Source of the DNA: a virus
Lineage: Duplodnaviria; Caudoviricetes
Length of the DNA stretch: 64,000 bases
IMG/VR virus record: IMGVR_UViG_3300024268_000035
Coordinates: 1 to 64,000 of that record
Strand: one strand, 5' to 3'
Part shown: positions 28,477-38,066 of the stretch, piece after piece
How positions within the stretch are numbered: position 1 is the first letter of the stretch
How the letters are laid out: every line of letters starts with the position of its first letter
The notes under the pieces: model-generated
What the model was told of the DNA's origin: nothing
Database searches by the model: none
The model's input: the letters and a program-made list of their open reading frames with translations, nothing else
Translations under genes and position numbers: made by a program

Positions 28477-29412
28477 TCATTCTCCTTTTGTTTCAAAAAC
28501 AACATCCTTGGCATGAATATCTGCCAGATGCAGTTTCAGGATGTCAGTATACAATTCTTCGCCGACAAGTTTACGAAACTTAGAAACGGCTTTATCTGAT
28601 TCTGTGCGCTCCAACTCATACGGACGCATATGCCACTGAATCACTGCAGCGATATACACTCTGTCAAGTTCCGGATTTGCATAGAATAAGCTATCGTAAG
28701 CAGAAACGTGCTGGTGGTCATAATAATGAGCGACCTCTGTGGTTTCGCCCTTGGAGTTTACAAAAGATTTTGTAAATGGCTTCCCAATGTCGTGAAGAAC
28801 CGCTGCTTCCTGAAGAGTATCAGACTCATTATTGAGTAAATTGCGAGCTGCAAGACAATGATAACCTACTGTATGGATGTGATGTGGATTGTCATGACTG
28901 ATATATTTCAGACCAGAAATTCCGTCGAACAATTCGTTTGCATCTCTGGTTTTGAACCCTTCCGGATAAATCAGATCGACGTAATCCCACCCTTCGTATG
29001 TATTGGGAATCCATATGTTTCGGTACATTCGTTCCAGAACATCATAAGGAACTACACGCTTACGGTGCTTACTACGTTCTACGCACATATCAAACGGAGT
29101 TGCCATGAAAACACATACTTTTACGCATTCAATTTTGCGAAGACGCTGCAAGGTGTCCATCCGGCGTTTATAATTGATATTTGTTGCATCATAGACAACA
29201 TTTTTTCCGTTTATCAGATCGGAAATGATCCGTTCATGAAGTGTGTCAAACACCAGTGTATTGTTGCTCTGGTTTTCCATGTCGCCGAGAAGTTCAGCAC
29301 GAATATTATCACTGGAATGAATAACAGCATCGTAGGCTTCTTGGAGTTTTTCTGCCTGAAAAGACTTTCCGCTGTATGGTAAGCCTACAAGCATGAAAAA
29401 TATTGGTTTCAT
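28477..29412 (-). CDS. Polynucleotide kinase (P-loop) fused to an HD domain
   Basis: GLPYSGKS, DATN...RR, HDNPHH, LHDIGKP, HLAD. Confidence 0.85.
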   Translation of the reverse strand: MKPIFFMLVGLPYSGKSFQAEKLQEAYDAVIHSSDNIRAELLGDMENQSNNTLVFDTLHERIISDLINGKNVVYDATNINYKRRMDTLQRLRKIECVKVCVFMATPFDMCVERSKHRKRVVPYDVLERMYRNIWIPNTYEGWDYVDLIYPEGFKTRDANELFDGISGLKYISHDNPHHIHTVGYHCLAARNLLNNESDTLQEAAVLHDIGKPFTKSFVNSKGETTEVAHYYDHQHVSAYDSLFYANPELDRVYIAAVIQWHMRPYELERTESDKAVSKFRKLVGEELYTDILKLHLADIHAKDVVFETKGE

Positions 29413-29426
29413 TTTTTTCTTTCTCC

Positions 29427-30233
29427 TTATATACTGCTTTTGAAATTAAACTTGAACAGATCTACAAGAACCTGATTAAGAATAGGGTCTACATCCGGAT
29501 TGATCGAGACAGGCACTTCTGTCATATACTTGTCTTTTCTTGCTTTCATACCGACAACTGTACTGTTTGCAATTTCCACTGCTTCCGATAACGTGTGGCA
29601 TTCACCGCGTTTTACGGATATCAGGTATGTATGAAGTTTTGAAACGAGACAATCTTCATACGGTTCACCCGACAGCCAACGTATCATGAATTCCTCACAG
29701 CGGATAATATGATGGAGCTGTTTGGGATCGTAGCCGTATTTTTCGATCTTGTCACGAATCGTAGGGTATGGGTGACACATTGCTTTCTGTTTTTCCAGAG
29801 CTGTACCAACAAAACAATTTACAGAATTGTAGTTATGGTATCTTCCAATCAACTCACGGGCTTCCAATACCGGTGTGAACAGTGCTTCGTATTTAGGATT
29901 CAGGATACGGTATTTGGTGAACAGAATTTCAACAAAGTTGATATTTTGTTTCCGGAAACACTCAAACATCTGCCGGATATCCTTAACATCAACGTGTTCG
30001 TTGTTCTCCATAATGTGTGTATAACTGTAAGGCTTATTGTTCAGCACAAAATCTTCAAAAGAAGGGAGGACAATCAATTTAGAATCTATGTCGCTCCCTT
30101 CATAATCAAGATTATAGTTCTGAGAGCCTTGCAGAAAGATACCAACCCATTCCGGGTGTGCATCTTTTACTGCATCAAGATGTTCGGAAAGCCGACGCAT
30201 GATTTTTGCGTCACGCTCAGTTAAGTTCGTCAT
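29427..30233 (-). CDS. Pol-beta-superfamily nucleotidyltransferase
   Basis: QGSQNYNL..EGSDID, KQN.NFVE. Confidence 0.8.
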   Translation of the reverse strand: MTNLTERDAKIMRRLSEHLDAVKDAHPEWVGIFLQGSQNYNLDYEGSDIDSKLIVLPSFEDFVLNNKPYSYTHIMENNEHVDVKDIRQMFECFRKQNINFVEILFTKYRILNPKYEALFTPVLEARELIGRYHNYNSVNCFVGTALEKQKAMCHPYPTIRDKIEKYGYDPKQLHHIIRCEEFMIRWLSGEPYEDCLVSKLHTYLISVKRGECHTLSEAVEIANSTVVGMKARKDKYMTEVPVSINPDVDPILNQVLVDLFKFNFKSSI

Positions 30234-30543
30234 CTTTATATCTCTCTTTCATAATGCAATCTCTTACGATATGACTGTAATGCAGGGAATCCACAGATTC
30301 GTAAGATTCCCAACATAACAGCTTTTCGTTATTTATGTATTTATCTGTGACTTCGCCGCGCACATCATAAAATGCGTCGCCGATTTTCTGGATGAAATGC
30401 CCTTCTACTGGCTCATACAATGTTATTCCGCCGAATCTGGCTGTGAGTATATAACAAAACCAGTAACAGCATCCATTCAGAAAGGTGAACTCTGCATCTT
30501 TGAAATGTCGGATGAAGTCGAGAATAGTTTTCTTATCAGCCAA
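30217..30543 (-). CDS. Hypothetical protein
   Basis: NGCCYWF, GHF, YDVRG motifs. Confidence 0.5.
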   Translation of the reverse strand: MADKKTILDFIRHFKDAEFTFLNGCCYWFCYILTARFGGITLYEPVEGHFIQKIGDAFYDVRGEVTDKYINNEKLLCWESYESVDSLHYSHIVRDCIMKERYKDDELN

Positions 30544-30700
30544 AGAATCCGCCCCATTTAAGCAGAAGCATTTCGATGGTACAACTGATGAGTGTTATGA
30601 AGAAATTGTATCTGCCAATATGTCTTTCACCATGTTTGGCAAGATGTAGACCAAGAGACAGCGCATATAATGCGATCAGGATAATTTGTGGTGCGCCCAT
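30536..30700 (-). CDS. Small membrane protein
   Basis: Manual translation MGAPQIILIALYALSLGLHLAKHG...LLKWGGFFG, two hydrophobic segments. Confidence 0.5.
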   Translation of the reverse strand: MGAPQIILIALYALSLGLHLAKHGERHIGRYNFFITLISCTIEMLLLKWGGFFG

Positions 30701-32065
30701 TTACACAACCTCCTGAGCTTCTTCCAAATCAGGGCTGACAGCAGTATCTTTAACGATACCTTCCAGAACCTTGAATGAGAAGTTTTTGTGCTTATACGCT
30801 GTGAACTTAGGACGATTTACAATTCTGACTACAACACCTTCGCGTACATGATCCTTACCTACCGGATCTGCGCCGTCGTAATACTGTTCTGCAATGTTCT
30901 TCACACATTCTCCGACAGAACATTCTTTCGCTGTGCAGGTATCCGCATATGGACAATCCTCACCGCCGATATACCCCTTCCAGAATACGGGTACGGTTTT
31001 TACGCCCATCTGTTCGCAGCGATAGCGCATGAAATCAGGAGTGTATTCAACAACGTCGCCATCTTCGTTCGTCATTGTCATGCGATAAACATAGATATCG
31101 GACTGTGGATGTGTAGGCGCATAACAGTCCTCTGTGAAACCTGCGGGTTCACATCCATAACTGAATACTGTGGTTTGCCCATACTGCTTGATAAAGTCCT
31201 TGTTGTTTACCTTCTTATTATCACAGGAGGACATAATAGGAGTACCGTCCTGTGTGAACCCTACGACTTCATAATAGACAGTCTCGCCCTTATGAAGTTT
31301 TCCTTCAAAGAACTTGCTGTGTTGTTCACGGAATTCGTTACTTCCATAAAAACCGCCGTCGTAATTGTCCAGAACAACACGACGGGTTCCTGTTACATAA
31401 CCCCAGTTATATATCGGTGTACCGTGACGTTTTAAGAGCTTGTCCATGAGAGTTCTCTTGTACCCAGAGAGTGTGGGGAGATAACCTGTTCTCTGAGATG
31501 TTCCGTGCATTTTGAGAGTGATTTCAACCTGATCTCCGTTATGGAATGCGGAAAGATTGTAGGAAAGCTGTTCTGTATCAGCGTGTTCCATAAAGAGTGG
31601 AGCGACTGGATCTTTACGCTTACGAGTGCGATTACCAGACGGATACCCCCCCCTACTATCGCTACGCGGAATATACTTTTCACAGATTGTAATTCCGTTC
31701 AGAACCGTGATTGTGTCTCCTTCGCGGAGCGTAGAAATATCGGTGAAATCTTCCAATGATGACAGCGGCATAAACAAGCCGTCACTCTTTTCGCCACGAA
31801 GCGTCAGAGCTTTGATATTACGCTTTTCGGGATCCAAATATCCTCCGGCTGGCTTACCATTTTCATCCTTACGGCGGAGCAGGTCATGTTTCTGTGCAAA
31901 TTCAAGACCGAGTTTACCATCCACCGGGAAATACACACCAAGTTCGTCAGGCTTTGTGTTAAGCCCAACGATTACGGTGTTACCAAAGCATTCGCCGCAC
32001 AACAGTCTGTCAGCGTTGGAATGTTTTCTTACATTTTTAATTCTTGTGATAAAAGCTGAATACAA
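30701..32065 (-). CDS. ATP-dependent RNA ligase (DRB0094/Rnl-like) with N-terminal OB domain
   Basis: HSNADRL, LRGEKS.G, motif I TLKMHGTS, YYE, EGVV, KHK; in-frame G8 tract at 31646-31653. Confidence 0.85.
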   Translation of the reverse strand: MYSAFITRIKNVRKHSNADRLLCGECFGNTVIVGLNTKPDELGVYFPVDGKLGLEFAQKHDLLRRKDENGKPAGGYLDPEKRNIKALTLRGEKSDGLFMPLSSLEDFTDISTLREGDTITVLNGITICEKYIPRSDSRGGYPSGNRTRKRKDPVAPLFMEHADTEQLSYNLSAFHNGDQVEITLKMHGTSQRTGYLPTLSGYKRTLMDKLLKRHGTPIYNWGYVTGTRRVVLDNYDGGFYGSNEFREQHSKFFEGKLHKGETVYYEVVGFTQDGTPIMSSCDNKKVNNKDFIKQYGQTTVFSYGCEPAGFTEDCYAPTHPQSDIYVYRMTMTNEDGDVVEYTPDFMRYRCEQMGVKTVPVFWKGYIGGEDCPYADTCTAKECSVGECVKNIAEQYYDGADPVGKDHVREGVVVRIVNRPKFTAYKHKNFSFKVLEGIVKDTAVSPDLEEAQEVV

Positions 32066-32130: not shown

Positions 32131-32568
32131 TTAATCATGATAGATGATTTCAATTCCAAGATTACTGTCTGATAACGTGCGAATCGTATTGGAAATGGCA
32201 TCATCTGCATACGCAATGTTTTTGAATAAAACTCTTTTACCACTACTTATGGCTTGCAGAGCTTTATCGTAAATATCTTTAAGGTTGGAATCTTTTTCAA
32301 GGATTTCATCCAATTCATTGTCTTCGTCGTCCGCGTCGTAGCAAAACAACTCTCGGATGCAATATTCCAAGCAATCCTGAGTATCAACGAGATCGCCCAC
32401 TTCGGTATATTCTGATTTCCAGAACAGAACCATATGAACTAAATCATTCAAAATGGCGAGAGCTGGATATTTTGAAAGTGCTTCCGGATCGAGCACAATC
32501 GGATTGCTATATGCAATAACGTAACTGGAGCTACTGCTATTGGTTACAAAGTCATTTCTTATTTTCAT
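32131..32568 (-). CDS. TNSSSSS-leader protein 7
   Basis: MKIRNDFVTNSSSSSYVI. Confidence 0.85.
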   Translation of the reverse strand: MKIRNDFVTNSSSSSYVIAYSNPIVLDPEALSKYPALAILNDLVHMVLFWKSEYTEVGDLVDTQDCLEYCIRELFCYDADDEDNELDEILEKDSNLKDIYDKALQAISSGKRVLFKNIAYADDAISNTIRTLSDSNLGIEIIYHD

Positions 32569-32924
32569 CCTCTGCTGATTTCTCCGTAATCGAATGAAAT
32601 ATCGTTATCGGTAAGATCCAAACCATACGATTCTTTCAAGACCTCTTTCAGTTGTTCTCTGAGTTGGGTTAATGTATACTGGAAAAGATCTTTTGTCATC
32701 AAAGTCCATCCAATATAACAGATATAATCCTCGCCAAAGACAGCCTGCATTCGTTCGCCCTGCAGATCCATTTTATCTGCCCACTCTTCACTTGCCCATT
32801 CTACAGCTTTTGCTTCGGTCGTTCCGTTCGCACTGAGAATCTTTTCGTGGTAAGAGGGGTCGATTTTCAGACACATGAAAGAACTACTGCTGGAGTTTGT
32901 AACAAAATCGGTACGAATTTTCAT
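32565..32924 (-). CDS. TNSSSSS-leader protein 6
   Basis: MKIRTDFVTNSSSSSFMC. Confidence 0.85.
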   Translation of the reverse strand: MKIRTDFVTNSSSSSFMCLKIDPSYHEKILSANGTTEAKAVEWASEEWADKMDLQGERMQAVFGEDYICYIGWTLMTKDLFQYTLTQLREQLKEVLKESYGLDLTDNDISFDYGEISRG

Positions 32925-32926
32925 AG

Positions 32927-33493
32927 TTAGGACTCCTTGTCATTCAGATAATCCATAAACTTTTTGTATGTACCGAACTCTTTCTTCCATCCGGCAACAA
33001 TTTCCGTAGGATTCAGGTTAAAACGGCTGCATACTTCTGTTATATATTCACTGTCGTAAAGTTTCTTGCGCCGCTTGTTGAACTGCTTTACTTTGGCGAA
33101 AACTTCTTCACGACTTACGCCGTATTTCTTTCCCAAGTAACGTGCAAGATCATTGTCTGCGTATTCAATAAACTGACAGATAGGGCAGAAACATTCGGGC
33201 ATATTGTAACGAATTTCATTTTCATGATCGTTTATCATACTGTAAAACAGATCCTCATCTGATTCATCCTTGAGAGAATCCGGATCTGCATCATAGTCGT
33301 TTACCATCATTGCGATCAGGTCATCTCTGGGGATGGAAAGTGTTTCATTTTCGCATATCACATGACCATTTACGCATTCTACCATTTCACAGTCGTACAG
33401 TGAAAAATCCATGCCGCTTACTGTTTCACCACAGATAGCGCAGATATAACATGAACTACTGGAATTGGTCACAAAGTCTTTTCTATACTTCAT
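32927..33493 (-). CDS. TNSSSSS-leader protein 5 (Cys-rich, Zn-binding)
   Basis: MKYRKDFVTNSSSSCYICAICG; CVNGH, CPIC. Confidence 0.85.
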   Translation of the reverse strand: MKYRKDFVTNSSSSCYICAICGETVSGMDFSLYDCEMVECVNGHVICENETLSIPRDDLIAMMVNDYDADPDSLKDESDEDLFYSMINDHENEIRYNMPECFCPICQFIEYADNDLARYLGKKYGVSREEVFAKVKQFNKRRKKLYDSEYITEVCSRFNLNPTEIVAGWKKEFGTYKKFMDYLNDKES

Positions 33494-33502
33494 TAAACCT
33501 CC

Positions 33503-34018
33503 TTAGTGGTGGCTGAATCTGCGAACGGTAAATTCGCAATCGGGAAGAATGGTATGTTCGAGTTCACAACCGATAATGGAATGATCTTCATATTCTACTT
33601 CCACAAGATAATGGCGTTCTCCAATTTCCGCAAGGATTTCTTGGAATAATCTTTCCATGACCCGTTTCTTCTCAGCCTTATATTCATCCGAATCGTAGAA
33701 ATCCATATGAGATGCGTCCGGGTGAGCATCGTACCATCTTTTCTGGAAAGTATCCTTATCGCTGCTATACCAGTTTCCTTTACCGTAACAGATTTCCATA
33801 TAAGCATCTGATTCCAGATCGCTTTCAACCATCTGATAAAGTGCATCATACGGAATCTGTTCTGCCTTATCGAATTCCTTCAGCAAATCGGCAATACAAT
33901 CGCTGTTGTAACGGGAAGTCATAGCAGCGATCTTCTTGAGTCCGTCCTGCTTATTCTTAAAGGCAAGAAGAAAACTGCTTGAAGAACTGTTTGTAACGAA
34001 ATCTGTTCTTACTTTCAT
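33503..34018 (-). CDS. TNSSSSS-leader protein 4
   Basis: MKVRTDFVTNSSSSSFLL. Confidence 0.85.
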   Translation of the reverse strand: MKVRTDFVTNSSSSSFLLAFKNKQDGLKKIAAMTSRYNSDCIADLLKEFDKAEQIPYDALYQMVESDLESDAYMEICYGKGNWYSSDKDTFQKRWYDAHPDASHMDFYDSDEYKAEKKRVMERLFQEILAEIGERHYLVEVEYEDHSIIGCELEHTILPDCEFTVRRFSHH

Positions 34019-34308
34019 GAGAGTCTCCTGTTAATCTTATAGCCAAGTTCCCTTGCTTTTCTGAGAGCAAGTTTGGCTTCATACAGTGAAAGTCCGATGG
34101 AGTTATTTAAGCCGGATTTGTTCAGCTCTTTTTCGTAAGAGTGGATCAGGTGTTTTCCACTTGATTTATGGGTGATTGCAAGCACCTGTGTATACCCATA
34201 TTTTGCATGATATTTTTCGTAGTAGGCTCCATATTGGTCTTCGCTTACTTTTACAAAGCTGAGTTCTTTCAGCTTTTCATCTGTACTTTTCCACAACATC
34301 TTTATCAC
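34015..34308 (-). CDS. Hypothetical protein within the cluster, lacking the leader
   Basis: Operonic ORF. Confidence 0.55.
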   Translation of the reverse strand: MIKMLWKSTDEKLKELSFVKVSEDQYGAYYEKYHAKYGYTQVLAITHKSSGKHLIHSYEKELNKSGLNNSIGLSLYEAKLALRKARELGYKINRRLS

Positions 34309-34314
34309 CTCAGA

Positions 34315-34734
34315 TCAGCCATTACGTCCTGCGCCACATTCACAGTAGGTTTCGGCAAAACCGTTTTCCTCTGTGATTTTGTCGATGATTGCGGATTCAT
34401 CGAAATCATCATAATACACACTGTAATCCGGATATCCATCGCCATCTTCATAGATTTCAAATCCACCTCTGATAACGATAAAGGAATCATCCATGTGTTT
34501 TTCGATATAGCTTCTTTCAGGCGTACAGTTTACACCAGCCCAGTAATATTCAAGCCAATCAGACCATTTACTGTCGCCGAGTGCCTCCAGAACTTCTCTG
34601 GCGGTATAGATTTCGATATCGTTCTTATGTTCATCAAGGATCGGCTGTGCTTTTTCGCGGTTTGCAATCCGGGCAAAACAGCAGATGAAGCTGCTTGATG
34701 AACTATTCGTAACAAAGTCTGTACGTATCTTCAT
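34315..34734 (-). CDS. TNSSSSS-leader protein 3
   Basis: MKIRTDFVTNSSSSSFIC. Confidence 0.85.
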   Translation of the reverse strand: MKIRTDFVTNSSSSSFICCFARIANREKAQPILDEHKNDIEIYTAREVLEALGDSKWSDWLEYYWAGVNCTPERSYIEKHMDDSFIVIRGGFEIYEDGDGYPDYSVYYDDFDESAIIDKITEENGFAETYCECGAGRNG

Positions 34735-34736
34735 GG

Positions 34737-35162
34737 TTATTCTCCGTCGTCGATAATGATAAAGTTTTCGTTTTTACTGCTTGCAATACGGATAAAATTA
34801 CGGAGTGACTGGTCGCAGTAGTCAATCCTTTTCTGAACAATGGAGTACCCTTTGTCCAAATATTCGAGAATCGTGTTATATTTGCTGAGATATCCATCGG
34901 ATTCGATGCTTTTTCTCATTTCTTCCACATTGCTGTAGCAGAAGTAGTCTGCAAACCATTTTTCAAAGTCTTCCTTTGTGTCAAACGCTTTCGCTTGGTT
35001 GGTTTCATCAGCACCTTCGCACAACATAAATGCGGCAAGCATTTTGTTAAAAGACTCCACAAAGGAACTAAGCGGATTGTCTGGGTCTGTTTTTACTGCT
35101 CTCGCAGCAATTACATAGCTCGAAGACGAGCTGTTGGTAACAAAATCCTGTCTGATTTTCAC
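34737..35162 (-). CDS. TNSSSSS-leader protein 2
   Basis: MKIRQDFVTNSSSSSYVI. Confidence 0.85.
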   Translation of the reverse strand: MKIRQDFVTNSSSSSYVIAARAVKTDPDNPLSSFVESFNKMLAAFMLCEGADETNQAKAFDTKEDFEKWFADYFCYSNVEEMRKSIESDGYLSKYNTILEYLDKGYSIVQKRIDYCDQSLRNFIRIASSKNENFIIIDDGE

Positions 35163-35519
35163 TTAATTTCCTCCGTCATAAATTTCTGTCATATATTCCT
35201 CTGGAATATTTCGATAAAGGAATGCGTCGTCGCCTTCTGTATCTCCGTCGTTTGTCCATGCGATAAACGAAGCAGTCAGGTAATATGTGTCATCTTCCAG
35301 TTCTTCCATAAACTCTTCATCAAGTTCGTTCGTAATCTGATGATATTCAGCGTTCTTAATTTCTGCGCCGGTTTCAAGCATTTCATTAAGAAGACGTTCG
35401 CCGAATCTTCCGAATTCCTCTTTCATGTATGTACGAAGCTCATCTGTAAGGTTTATCTTTGCAACACAGATATAACTGCTGGATGAGCTGTTCGTAACAA
35501 AGTCCTGTCTAATTTTCAT
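35163..35519 (-). CDS. TNSSSSS-leader protein 1
   Basis: MKIRQDFVTNSSSSSYIC. Confidence 0.85.
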   Translation of the reverse strand: MKIRQDFVTNSSSSSYICVAKINLTDELRTYMKEEFGRFGERLLNEMLETGAEIKNAEYHQITNELDEEFMEELEDDTYYLTASFIAWTNDGDTEGDDAFLYRNIPEEYMTEIYDGGN

Positions 35520-35529
35520 CCATTACGCC

Positions 35530-35790
35530 TCAATTCTTAATCAAAGCAATGTTGGATGAATGAACAAGGTAGGTCTTTCCGTCGATTACGACCTGAATCT
35601 GATCTCCGTCTTCAAAGTCTGTCCAAGATGAAACAGAACCATTGACAACCGATCCGTCCGGCAGTGAAATGATTGCAGTGTCGAAAGTGTATGTAAGATC
35701 GAATAACTGCTTGTTGCCCCATCCTAATAAAGAACACAGGATGAGAAATACCATTGCGGCTGCCAGAGCCAATGTGATGTACCTCTTCAT
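35530..35790 (-). CDS. Small exported phage protein
   Basis: Signal-like N-terminus; GNKQLFDLTYTF...DGDQIQV...YLVHSSN. Confidence 0.6.
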   Translation of the reverse strand: MKRYITLALAAAMVFLILCSLLGWGNKQLFDLTYTFDTAIISLPDGSVVNGSVSSWTDFEDGDQIQVVIDGKTYLVHSSNIALIKN

Positions 35791-35993
35791 TTCTTTTCCT
35801 CCATTTGATTCTGAAATGTGTTTTGGAAACGCTTTAACATTTCCTCATCTTCAATATAAAACGGGTCTTTCCCCATCTTATCGAATACGATAGTTATAAG
35901 CTGCCCAAACCGAAGATCGGGACAGCATTCCCAGATTTCTGCAAGTCGATTGCAAAACTTCCGGATTCTTTTAGGATCACGCATTACATCCAC
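35787..35993 (-). CDS. DUF1040-like small protein
   Basis: MRDPKRI...W...PDLRFGQL...DPFYIED. Confidence 0.6.
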   Translation of the reverse strand: MDVMRDPKRIRKFCNRLAEIWECCPDLRFGQLITIVFDKMGKDPFYIEDEEMLKRFQNTFQNQMEEKK

Positions 35994-36253
35994 CCCGGAA
36001 TTACATCGCCTTCGCCGATACCAATGTAAGCATTTAATACAGCTATAGCTTCTGGATTATAAATATACTTGGTTTTATCCAACAGCAAATCCCGTATCTG
36101 AGAGATTGTAAAATCGGGATGCTCTTCATGAATGATAACAAGGAAGTCATTTGTTGCTGTTGTAGAACCGGCGACCTTCCTGATTTTCTTTCCTTTGGGT
36201 CTTATATGCGGATAATAACTTATATCTGTGTGACCTTTAGGATATTTCGGCAT
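35984..36253 (-). CDS. Hypothetical protein
   Basis: Operonic ORF. Confidence 0.5.
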   Translation of the reverse strand: MPKYPKGHTDISYYPHIRPKGKKIRKVAGSTTATNDFLVIIHEEHPDFTISQIRDLLLDKTKYIYNPEAIAVLNAYIGIGEGDVIPGWM

Positions 36254-37329
36254 TACACAGTTTTCTCCGTACTGTCACAAATTACAATTTGAGGACGAAT
36301 CGGACATCCGCCCATACACGAAAGACGTTTACTACATCCGGGACAAGCTGTATGGAAGTGGTTGCGGAAGTCTTCAAACTGTTCGCTGTTCCATGCGTTC
36401 TGAATAGTATCATTGGAAATGTCGTATGCCCAGCGAAGTTCCTGATTGTCGAAGGAGCAGGGGAGAGCTTTCATATCGCTTGTGATATACATACTCCATC
36501 TGCCGACCTCACAGGTATCTACACTGTCGTTGTCGATATTTTCTGTGAAATTCAATACAGCCGGAATAGAGCAGGAGTCAAAGCCGATTTTGAAATTGAA
36601 CTGCTGTGTATCAACAATACTGAAAAACTCTTTTACTCTGGGATCATTGACCTTCAGCACGTTGGATTCGCTTCCAAGTCCAACCGGCTTGTGTAAAAGG
36701 AAGATAACAGCATTGATTCCTGTTGGGAAATCATTCGTTTTCAGACGGCGAATGGCTTCATCAATAGAATTGTCACCGAGAACATAGTGAACATTGGTTT
36801 TTACCCCGGCATCCAGAAGCATTTGAATAGCGCGGATGGTATGTTCCTGACGATACCACGAAATTGCAACGGCTCCGCAATATCTTTTACAGAGCTGCAC
36901 AATCTGGTCAGTGAAACCAAGACCGGAACTGGTAAAGTTGGGCACGATGTCGTTTTCGCGGCAGTATGCGAGGATTTCTTCAAAGTTTTCATGCTGATCC
37001 ACGTCGCCGCGTCCACCAAGAGCAAGCTGGAAGGTTTTGCCCTTGCATTCATCCACGATACGCTTGAAGTTTTCAAGTGTCATGTTAGGATGTTTTGTTT
37101 TTAAGCCGTTTTGGTAGCACTGAACACCGGATTTAATACAAAGTCCACTGGATCCGTGGACGCAGTGTCCCATAACACCTACGTCAATCAACTCCGGATA
37201 AGAAGTCATAAATGGATCTACACCGGTATCTTTGCCATCTTCATCGAGAATGCCGCTTCTTGCATAGAAACCAGTCTTCGGATTAAACATGGATACGAAG
37301 TGATTTCTGCGGTCAATTTTTGTAATCAT
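36253..37329 (-). CDS. Radical SAM enzyme with SPASM domain and non-canonical Cys spacing
   Basis: CVHGSSGLCIKSGVQCYQ (CX7CX6C), ALGGRGD, TCEVG...PCSF, CPGC...CMGGCP. Confidence 0.85.
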   Translation of the reverse strand: MITKIDRRNHFVSMFNPKTGFYARSGILDEDGKDTGVDPFMTSYPELIDVGVMGHCVHGSSGLCIKSGVQCYQNGLKTKHPNMTLENFKRIVDECKGKTFQLALGGRGDVDQHENFEEILAYCRENDIVPNFTSSGLGFTDQIVQLCKRYCGAVAISWYRQEHTIRAIQMLLDAGVKTNVHYVLGDNSIDEAIRRLKTNDFPTGINAVIFLLHKPVGLGSESNVLKVNDPRVKEFFSIVDTQQFNFKIGFDSCSIPAVLNFTENIDNDSVDTCEVGRWSMYITSDMKALPCSFDNQELRWAYDISNDTIQNAWNSEQFEDFRNHFHTACPGCSKRLSCMGGCPIRPQIVICDSTEKTV

Positions 37330-37866: not shown

Positions 37867-38066
37867 ATGGGATCGCCATTGTTTCTGGCATGATTGATGA
37901 GTTTTCTGACTTCTACCCCTGAGACACCAAGTCCCGCTGCGATAGCAGAGCCGCAGATTGGATTATGTCTGCCGTCAGAATGAGTCATGATATACTTTGT
38001 AATGGGATCCATAAGCACCTTCCATGTGCAAAAATATAGCGGCGGAACCGAAATCCCGCCGCACAA
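37731..38066 (-). CDS. Winged-HTH protein
   Basis: IAAGLGVSGVEVRKLINHAR..G.PICS...GYY. Confidence 0.65.
   Translation of the reverse strand: MCGGISVPPLYFCTWKVLMDPITKYIMTHSDGRHNPICGSAIAAGLGVSGVEVRKLINHARNNGDPICSNAKGYYIAQDVTEIQETIDSLRGRIRSMEEAISGLQMCLRGR
38039..38062 (-). terminator. Putative intrinsic terminator after the TROVE-like gene
   Basis: GCGGCGG/CCGCCGC hairpin followed by TATATTTTT on the minus strand. Confidence 0.55.

Follow-up and report, generated by a model that had tools for sequence, protein, structure and literature searches.

Why do seven proteins of a gut phage that differ over most of their length begin with the same short, serine-rich segment, and how is this segment related to the radical S-adenosylmethionine (SAM) enzyme encoded upstream of them? 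The question is raised by a gene array in a 64,000 nt stretch of DNA, referred to here as the window, which comprises positions 1 to 64,000 of the 101.5-kb IMG/VR virus record IMGVR_UViG_3300024268_000035 (Duplodnaviria; Caudoviricetes). The array is on the minus strand and consists of one SPASM radical SAM gene followed by seven genes, between positions 35519 and 32131, whose products share a 16-residue N-terminal sequence, termed the tag (Table 1). An earlier note on this DNA had described these open reading frames (ORFs) and proposed that the tag is linked to the enzyme. Sequence comparisons strongly support a functional tie between the two. The evidence also leans, modestly, toward the tag being the recognition site, and probably the site of modification, of the neighboring enzyme.

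The N-terminal tag

All seven N-termini fit the pattern MK[IVY]RxDFVTNSSSS[S/C][Y/F], and M1, K2, R4, D6, F7, V8, T9, N10 and S11–S14 are invariant between them. The serine codons alternate between TCN and AGY, only 44% of codon pairs for the same tag residue agree at the third base, and over their first 48 nt the genes have a mean nucleotide identity of 0.64. This points to selection on the peptide and not to a DNA repeat, as the earlier note had concluded. The coordinates, lengths (118–188 aa) and acidity that it gave for the seven ORFs are also borne out, with isoelectric points (pI) of 4.06–4.90 for proteins 1–7. The record, within and beyond the window, contains no further copy of the tag.

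The same residues are conserved well beyond this phage. In 429 tags from 161 loci, K2 is present in 427, R4 in 418, D6 in 378 (G in 50), F7 in 411, V8 in 419, T9 in 428, S14 in 387, S15 in 413 and F or Y16 in 427. The tag is portable, in that it heads six unrelated small bodies in the window (see below) and also leucine-rich-repeat (LRR_5) proteins of 325 and 1,062 aa. Both of the latter are of the BspA type. The gene for the 1,062-aa protein (L156:10001-13186, a bacterial contig) is directly 3' of the enzyme gene; the 325-aa protein is encoded at L163:10001-10975, and the enzyme is on another contig of the same genome. A literature search found no paper on the motif, none of relevance on phage SPASM systems and none that treats the enzyme and its tag as a system.

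Pairing of the tag with the enzyme

A profile of the seven proteins matches 8,847 cluster representatives (50% identity) at E 0.001 or better. Nearly all of these begin the match at residue 1 and most are 118–195 aa; the median length of a tagged protein, or client, is 134 aa.

The pairing of enzyme and tag is near-obligate. Starting from the enzyme, its gene is followed on the same strand by one to six tagged genes in 16 of the 17 viral loci fetched, and the 17th, which has no tagged gene, ends early. Starting from the tag, an enzyme gene is present within 10 kb in 56 of 75 viral loci, nearly always upstream and on the same strand. It is elsewhere on the record in 10 more (66/75 in total), and the remainder are mostly fragments. 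The enzyme gene adjoins the tagged gene in 73 of the 80 bacterial and archaeal loci; in two of the remaining seven it is found at another place in the genome. An unselected sample was provided by 400 Bacillota species genomes, all searched with both profiles and with the centre genome left out. Both genes are present in 9 genomes, the enzyme only in 1, the tag only in 0 and neither in 390 (Fisher p 1.5e-17); in all 9 genomes with both, the genes are within about 450 bp of each other. The earlier note had named a tag that commonly occurs without the enzyme as one observation that would speak against its proposal, and no tag-only genome occurs among the 400.

The note had also regarded the tag family as phage proteins, and this does not hold. 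The system is not phage-specific; it is common in bacteria and archaea as a cassette of one tag plus enzyme, in part beside Avs2-type STAND proteins. The median number of tagged genes per locus is three in phages and one in cellular genomes.

This distribution bears on the possibility that the tag is a sorting or assembly signal apart from any enzyme chemistry. The internal proteins of phage T4 have a common capsid-targeting N-terminal sequence on divergent tandem proteins, and a short conserved N-terminus on the divergent, tandem, acidic proteins of the array recalls those loci. By analogy, the tag might target proteins to the capsid, or it might be a strand that nucleates hetero-oligomers. 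However, bacterial and archaeal chromosomes commonly encode the tag, on a single gene beside the enzyme and far from virion genes, and a virion signal fails to explain the near-obligate pairing or the co-variation described below. A sorting function is very improbable.

A SPASM radical SAM protein is also encoded in Klebsiella phage KP15 (L173; NC_014036.1 90116-91318) and about 165 related cultured T4-like phages. None of the 12 neighboring gene products of KP15 whose starts were read begins with the tag. KP15-like phages were considered as a cultured model and rejected, as the enzyme is only 27% identical to that of the window and its neighbors are untagged; by sequence, the KP15-type enzyme looks like a separate phage clade.

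The radical SAM/SPASM enzyme

The enzyme scores 29.3 bits against Pfam SPASM (PF13186), which passes the cut-off of 21.5. Against Pfam Radical_SAM (PF04055) it scores 19.2 bits, under the cut-off of 29.5; a homologue at L142:10399-11427 has a score of 57.8 bits with this model. The match to phrog_7293 has an E-value of 4.8e-24. The cluster loop is C56-x7-C64-x6-C71 in place of the canonical CX3CX2C, so that the unusual CX7CX6C spacing previously pointed out in an upstream SPASM gene is confirmed. Other relatives have CxCx3Cx3C or further spacings. A sister clade of 16 loci has CX3CX2C at the equivalent place, which implies that the family is radical SAM by descent. A GGxGD motif is present at positions 105–109, where GGE is expected, and A103, G105, G106 and G108 do not vary across 48 diverse homologues, the pattern of a glycine-rich SAM-binding motif.

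Eight cysteines in the C-terminal part are invariant or nearly so (C253, C273, C291, C329, C332, C338, C342 and C351). The seven SPASM cysteines together with the upstream C253 would provide enough ligands for two full auxiliary clusters. On the PF13186 match and the seven-cysteine motif the enzyme is assigned to the SPASM group. The nearest solved structures, with weak E-values, are SkfB (6efn, E 7.5e-7), SuiB (5v1q) and PqqE (6c8v), and all three are peptide modifiers.

The enzyme gene is interrupted in some viral loci. An intein with a LAGLIDADG homing endonuclease is present inside the gene at L062:7130-9496 and L024:2448-4793; the insertion point is just before the ALGGxGD motif, with the junction HN|C. 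At L020:1428-3314, a GIY-YIG/NUMOD3 homing-endonuclease ORF continues without a frame change into the radical SAM gene, and the stop-to-stop frame is 629 aa.

Co-variation of tag and enzyme

The tag variants follow the enzyme clades. In the 16 cellular loci with a CX3CX2C enzyme, the tags have NSSS[V/T/A]S in 22 of 22 cases. Serine is at tag position 14 in 362 of 370 tags from the 121 loci with an expanded loop (CX7CX6C in 100 of them). The cluster loop of radical SAM enzymes lines the active site. That the varying tag position 14 goes with this loop favors a tag that is read by the enzyme. Position 6, which is D or G, is mixed in only 4 of 96 loci, compared with 39.7 expected from shuffles (minimum 29). 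It is uniform per genome, across unrelated bodies and across loci tens of kb apart on one phage. The co-occurrence in both directions and the match between tag variants and enzyme clades uphold the proposal that the shared tag is tied to the enzyme.

Both the co-occurrence and the co-variation are equally compatible with a tag that is a docking peptide and not a substrate. It would then anchor interchangeable adaptors, each body bringing a different host or phage target to the enzyme; the diversity of the bodies, which include classic binding modules such as LRR_5, fits this role. However, the most invariant part of the tag is a run of small hydroxyl residues (N-S-S-S), which is more like an active-site insert than a hydrophobic anchor, and the variable tag position tracks the cluster loop of the active site. 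Docking alone is the leading alternative, though an unlikely one.

Bodies of the tagged proteins

The bodies were compared after removal of the first 20 residues, profile to profile, with hhalign. Those of proteins 2 and 7 are related (probability 100%, E 8.8e-46), and all other pairs have a probability <15%. By this comparison the seven proteins represent six body families with no detectable sequence relationship, and proteins 2 and 7 are the sole paralogues. The description of the seven as dissimilar therefore stands for the six families and fails for this pair.

Each of the bodies has its own relatives elsewhere. Body-only relatives are P0040, P0095, P0108 and P0133 for protein 1, 15 among the representatives for protein 5, and one, P0102, for protein 6. 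Pfam, NCBIfam and PADLOC give no meaningful family for any tagged protein, and neighbors in the ESM Atlas are unnamed viral clusters only. Weak matches to the unnamed phage family phrog_7397 (E 0.0013–0.0041) are limited to proteins 1, 3 and 4. Protein 5 has paired-cysteine motifs that resemble zinc ribbons. The family of protein 4 has a conserved EYEDH...ELEH...SHH near the C-terminus. This cluster of acidic and histidine residues resembles a metal site, and some tagged bodies may thus be enzymes.

AlphaFold models of proteins 4 and 7 have mean predicted local distance difference test (pLDDT) values of 90.7 and 88.5, respectively. Residues 1–11 of protein 4 are <50 and the first strand is at 13–20. 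In protein 7, residues 1–10 have a mean of 52, and strands are at 13–20, 59–61, 112–119 and 139–144. The first 11 tag residues are thus predicted to be unstructured in two otherwise confident models, and with pLDDT below about 50 they would be free to enter another protein. The two models display a common order of strand 13–20, helical insert, strand, helix and C-terminal strand, and the bodies may therefore share a minimal core.

A shared core raises the possibility that the motif belongs to the structure or active site of a single, ancient superfamily of small alpha/beta proteins, to which the enzyme is linked in another way, e.g., by making a bound cofactor or small molecule. The agreement of the two models in strand and helix order fits this explanation, as does the match of the seven-protein profile to most relatives over their whole length. 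In addition, an Asp just after the penultimate strand is conserved in both families (D145 for protein 4; D122, at 90% or more, for protein 7) and aligns in all seven proteins. However, an aligned Asp is weak evidence in proteins that are 17–24% Asp plus Glu, and the body-only profile comparison gives no homology between five of the six body families. Residues 1–11, the most conserved part, are unpacked in both models. Fold searches give only generic ferredoxin-like matches with Z 5.7 or less. The model of protein 4 has no Foldseek match in the PDB at E 0.001 or better, and its best VIA match (Z 5.5) covers helical segments only, with no clear PDB fold; for protein 7, VIA Z values are 5.7 or less, generic ferredoxin-like, and nothing is found in BFVD. 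A single superfamily is quite improbable. The related suggestion, that the motif is a mere structural strand, is borne out in part: S13 onward begins the first beta-strand of both models, and the tag is thus not entirely separate from the fold.

Proposed mechanism and points against it

If the tag is the recognition and modification site, the enzyme would most likely bind an exposed strand, K2–N10, via its invariant charged face (K2, R4 and D6). The invariant N10-S11-S12-S13 would then be placed beside the SAM-binding iron-sulfur cluster, where one residue would be modified by radical chemistry; serine oxidation and a cross-link are candidate reactions. One enzyme would mature a variable set of folded clients, which here number seven from six unrelated body families.

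Several observations weigh against this proposal. The co-variation stems from few independent events, i.e., two enzyme clades and one phage clade with G6. In the phage record L079 (332 kb, with an estimated completeness of 92%), a tagged protein is encoded and no match to the enzyme is found. Only 77% of 60 homologues retain the middle Cys of CX7CX6C; with a loop that is also non-canonical, cluster ligation is uncertain and SAM cleavage is not assured in this clade. No leader-binding domain of the PqqD-like or RiPP recognition element (RRE) type (RiPP, ribosomally synthesized and post-translationally modified peptide) was detected in the enzyme by Pfam and NCBIfam scans. S13–F16 begin the first core strand in both models, and conservation of the motif may therefore be partly structural. 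The modification itself is a proposal drawn from sequence comparisons and models. A predicted complex of the enzyme, protein 4, SAM and three 4Fe-4S clusters has a score of 0.02, compared with a mark of 0.32, and was not used either way.

Comparison with known SPASM systems

The enzymes anSME and AtsB are similar to the system proposed here in that a SPASM radical SAM protein acts on an N-terminal motif of whole folded proteins, with several clients per enzyme, and modifies a Ser or Cys within a short client motif. As in anSME, the eight conserved cysteines outside the SAM cluster of the window enzyme would suffice for two full auxiliary clusters. However, anSME clients are sulfatases with (C/S)xPxR, whereas the tag (KxRxDFVTNSSS) is without (C/S)xPxR, its clients are not sulfatases, and the cluster loop of the window enzyme is non-canonical. 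No anSME family model is among the NCBIfam hits of the enzyme and no anSME structure among its matches. By client motif and family model, then, the enzyme does not appear to be an anSME.

The SPASM/twitch maturases of RiPPs (SkfB, SuiB/StrB and PqqE) are the closest solved structures by sequence. RiPP and prochlorosin-type systems have a logic in common with the array: a conserved recognition segment, a hypervariable remainder, and one enzyme with several tandem substrates. In contrast, RiPP substrates are short peptides, and the enzyme described here is paired with folded proteins that range from 90 to more than 1,000 aa and whose conserved segment probably contains the position acted upon. 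The pair is not accompanied by an RRE domain, a protease or an exporter. As judged by the lack of an RRE domain and of short precursor peptides, the enzyme does not classify as a RiPP maturase.

Genomic context and Avs2-type proteins

The cellular pairs are in mobile or defence contexts in several loci. In L149 the pair is flanked on one side by a RecD-like helicase and on the other by a restriction-modification system that includes a Schlafen-type helicase, and in L168 it is between a trypsin-STAND protein and a PRTase-CE protein. In L142 it is inside a conjugative element, directly before an Avs2-like protein that matches PADLOC Avs2 at E 1.7e-45. The order tagged gene, enzyme, Avs2-like gene is found in eight cellular loci, all in the clade with the canonical motif. 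An Avs2 or other STAND gene is absent from the window, and no Avs2 homologue is found in the viral loci. An obligate third gene was considered and rejected, as neither the downstream helicase of L149 nor the set of small ORFs in the window is conserved alongside enzyme and tag.

Plasmid pAt of Agrobacterium tumefaciens Ach5 (L174:2553-7005) encodes, in order, an 889-aa SMEK-domain protein, a 122-aa protein, a tagged 132-aa protein and the enzyme. The tag is MKLKMDFVSNSSSTSF and the radical SAM enzyme has the canonical motif; this shows that the pair occurs in an aerobe. When E. coli genomes were searched for distant DNA matches to the Agrobacterium cassette, none was found. The context is not always one of defence. 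In a Methanobacteriaceae metagenome-assembled genome (L146:6018-14676), the pair is flanked on one side by a molybdopterin oxidoreductase together with a poly-ferredoxin, and on the other by a molybdate-type ABC transporter.

The KpAvs2 operon of Klebsiella pneumoniae provides a described system of related composition (Bechon et al. 2024, Nat Commun 15:9860, PMC11564622). KpAvs2 requires Avap2, a small protein that binds it, and defence against some phages, though not all, also depends on the radical SAM protein Avap1; the functions of both accessory proteins are left unexplained there. Like the pair described here, Avap1/Avap2 is a radical SAM enzyme with a small protein of roughly 130 aa. 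A shared N-terminal motif goes unmentioned in the passages of the article considered here. The Klebsiella pair differs from the array in that Avs2 is the partner there, whereas the window is without an Avs2 or STAND gene and has seven clients rather than one. The binding of Avap2 to Avs2 and the phage-specific need for Avap1 also fit a docking role of the tag. Avap2 is tied by HHpred to DUF6375 (PMC11564622). With HMMER, DUF6375 (PF19902) has no match at the tagged genes in 10 genomes or records, nor is it among the hits of the Pfam scans, although HHpred reaches further, and it was not found in 401 Bacteroidota genomes.

The pair is thus found in defence islands and beside Avs2-type STAND ATPases, and here in a phage accessory region, from which we infer that the clients are probably effectors or adaptors in phage-host conflict. 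A more specific idea, which we regard as distinctly unlikely, is that the array is a counter-immunity kit: the enzyme would give an exchangeable set of small acidic proteins a modified tag, and these would mimic the tagged, Avap2-like partner of NLR-like STAND sensors, thereby binding and disarming, or mis-triggering, various host immune receptors.

Organization of the array and neighboring genes

The array was described earlier as part of a tightly packed run. All of its genes are on the same strand; three untagged ORFs precede the tagged genes, and one untagged 97-aa ORF interrupts the array (Table 1). Among 172 loci, the 89-aa and 86-aa ORFs are present only in the window and L019 and are not conserved with the system, and the 97-aa ORF has no homologue and is unique to the window. 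The 68-aa ORF has BLASTP matches in 24 loci including the window, the remainder being mostly phages with close relatives of the window enzyme; by sequence it is conserved in related phages only.

Table 1. Genes of the radical SAM enzyme and tagged-protein array in the window
Feature	Position	Strand	Remarks
Radical SAM/SPASM enzyme, 358 aa	36253..37329	-	Pfam SPASM; phrog_7293
Untagged ORF, 89 aa	35984..36253	-	Directly 3' of enzyme; no Pfam match
Untagged ORF, 68 aa	35787..35993	-	No Pfam match
Untagged ORF, 86 aa	35530..35790	-	Hydrophobic N-terminus (translation)
Tagged protein 1, 118 aa	35163..35519	-	pI 4.06; body family with C-terminal ...GDDAxLYxxIPxEY
Tagged protein 2, 141 aa	34737..35162	-	GTG start; commonest body family
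Tagged protein 3, 139 aa	34315..34734	-	pI 4.30; body family with C-terminal ...YGAGRNG
Untagged ORF, 97 aa	34015..34308	-	Interrupts array; no Pfam match
Tagged protein 4, 171 aa	33503..34018	-	30 homologues
Tagged protein 5, 188 aa	32927..33493	-	10 Cys; tag position 15 is Cys
Tagged protein 6, 119 aa	32565..32924	-	Stop overlaps start of protein 7
Tagged protein 7, 145 aa	32131..32568	-	Commonest body family

The window represents a phage accessory region. Upstream of the array are a DUF2828/vWA (Ro60-like) protein gene and tRNA genes. Downstream are genes for an RNA ligase, a YunG-like protein, a nucleotidyltransferase-like ORF and a kinase-HD fusion. The genes at 28477-32065, on the same strand after the array (RNA ligase, YunG-like protein, 268-aa ORF and AAA_33 kinase-HD fusion), have the appearance of an RNA-repair-like module. 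The RNA ligase has weak RNA_ligase and PHA02142 OB-fold matches, each under the Pfam cut-off. A strong terminator-like hairpin at 38039-38062 (minus strand) has 10 pairs, 7 of them G-C, and a T-run, and is just 3' of the DUF2828/vWA gene. It may represent the boundary where the transcription unit of the enzyme and tagged genes begins. A scan for promoters and terminators gave counts no higher than the shuffled expectation, and megablast of the region against GenBank phages gave no match.

Significance

New here are the table of 400 unselected genomes, the link between the cluster loop and tag position 14, the finding that position 6 is uniform within genomes, the body-only homology test and a second structural model. 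Among the Bacillota species sampled, about 2% have the system; it also occurs in Bacteroidota, archaea, proteobacterial plasmids and hundreds of large phages. With their expanded cluster loops (CX7CX6C and others), the enzymes broaden the known forms of the radical SAM motif. If the enzyme modifies the tag, this would constitute a new post-translational modification system on whole folded proteins, and the tag with its dedicated enzyme is a possible handle for protein engineering. It would provide a testable function for thousands of unnamed phage proteins and would bear on Avap1 and Avap2, the as yet unexplained accessory proteins of an NLR-like antiviral system. Should the clients of phages such as this one also be a counter-immunity kit, radical SAM modification of a tag would be common to bacterial NLR immunity and phage evasion.

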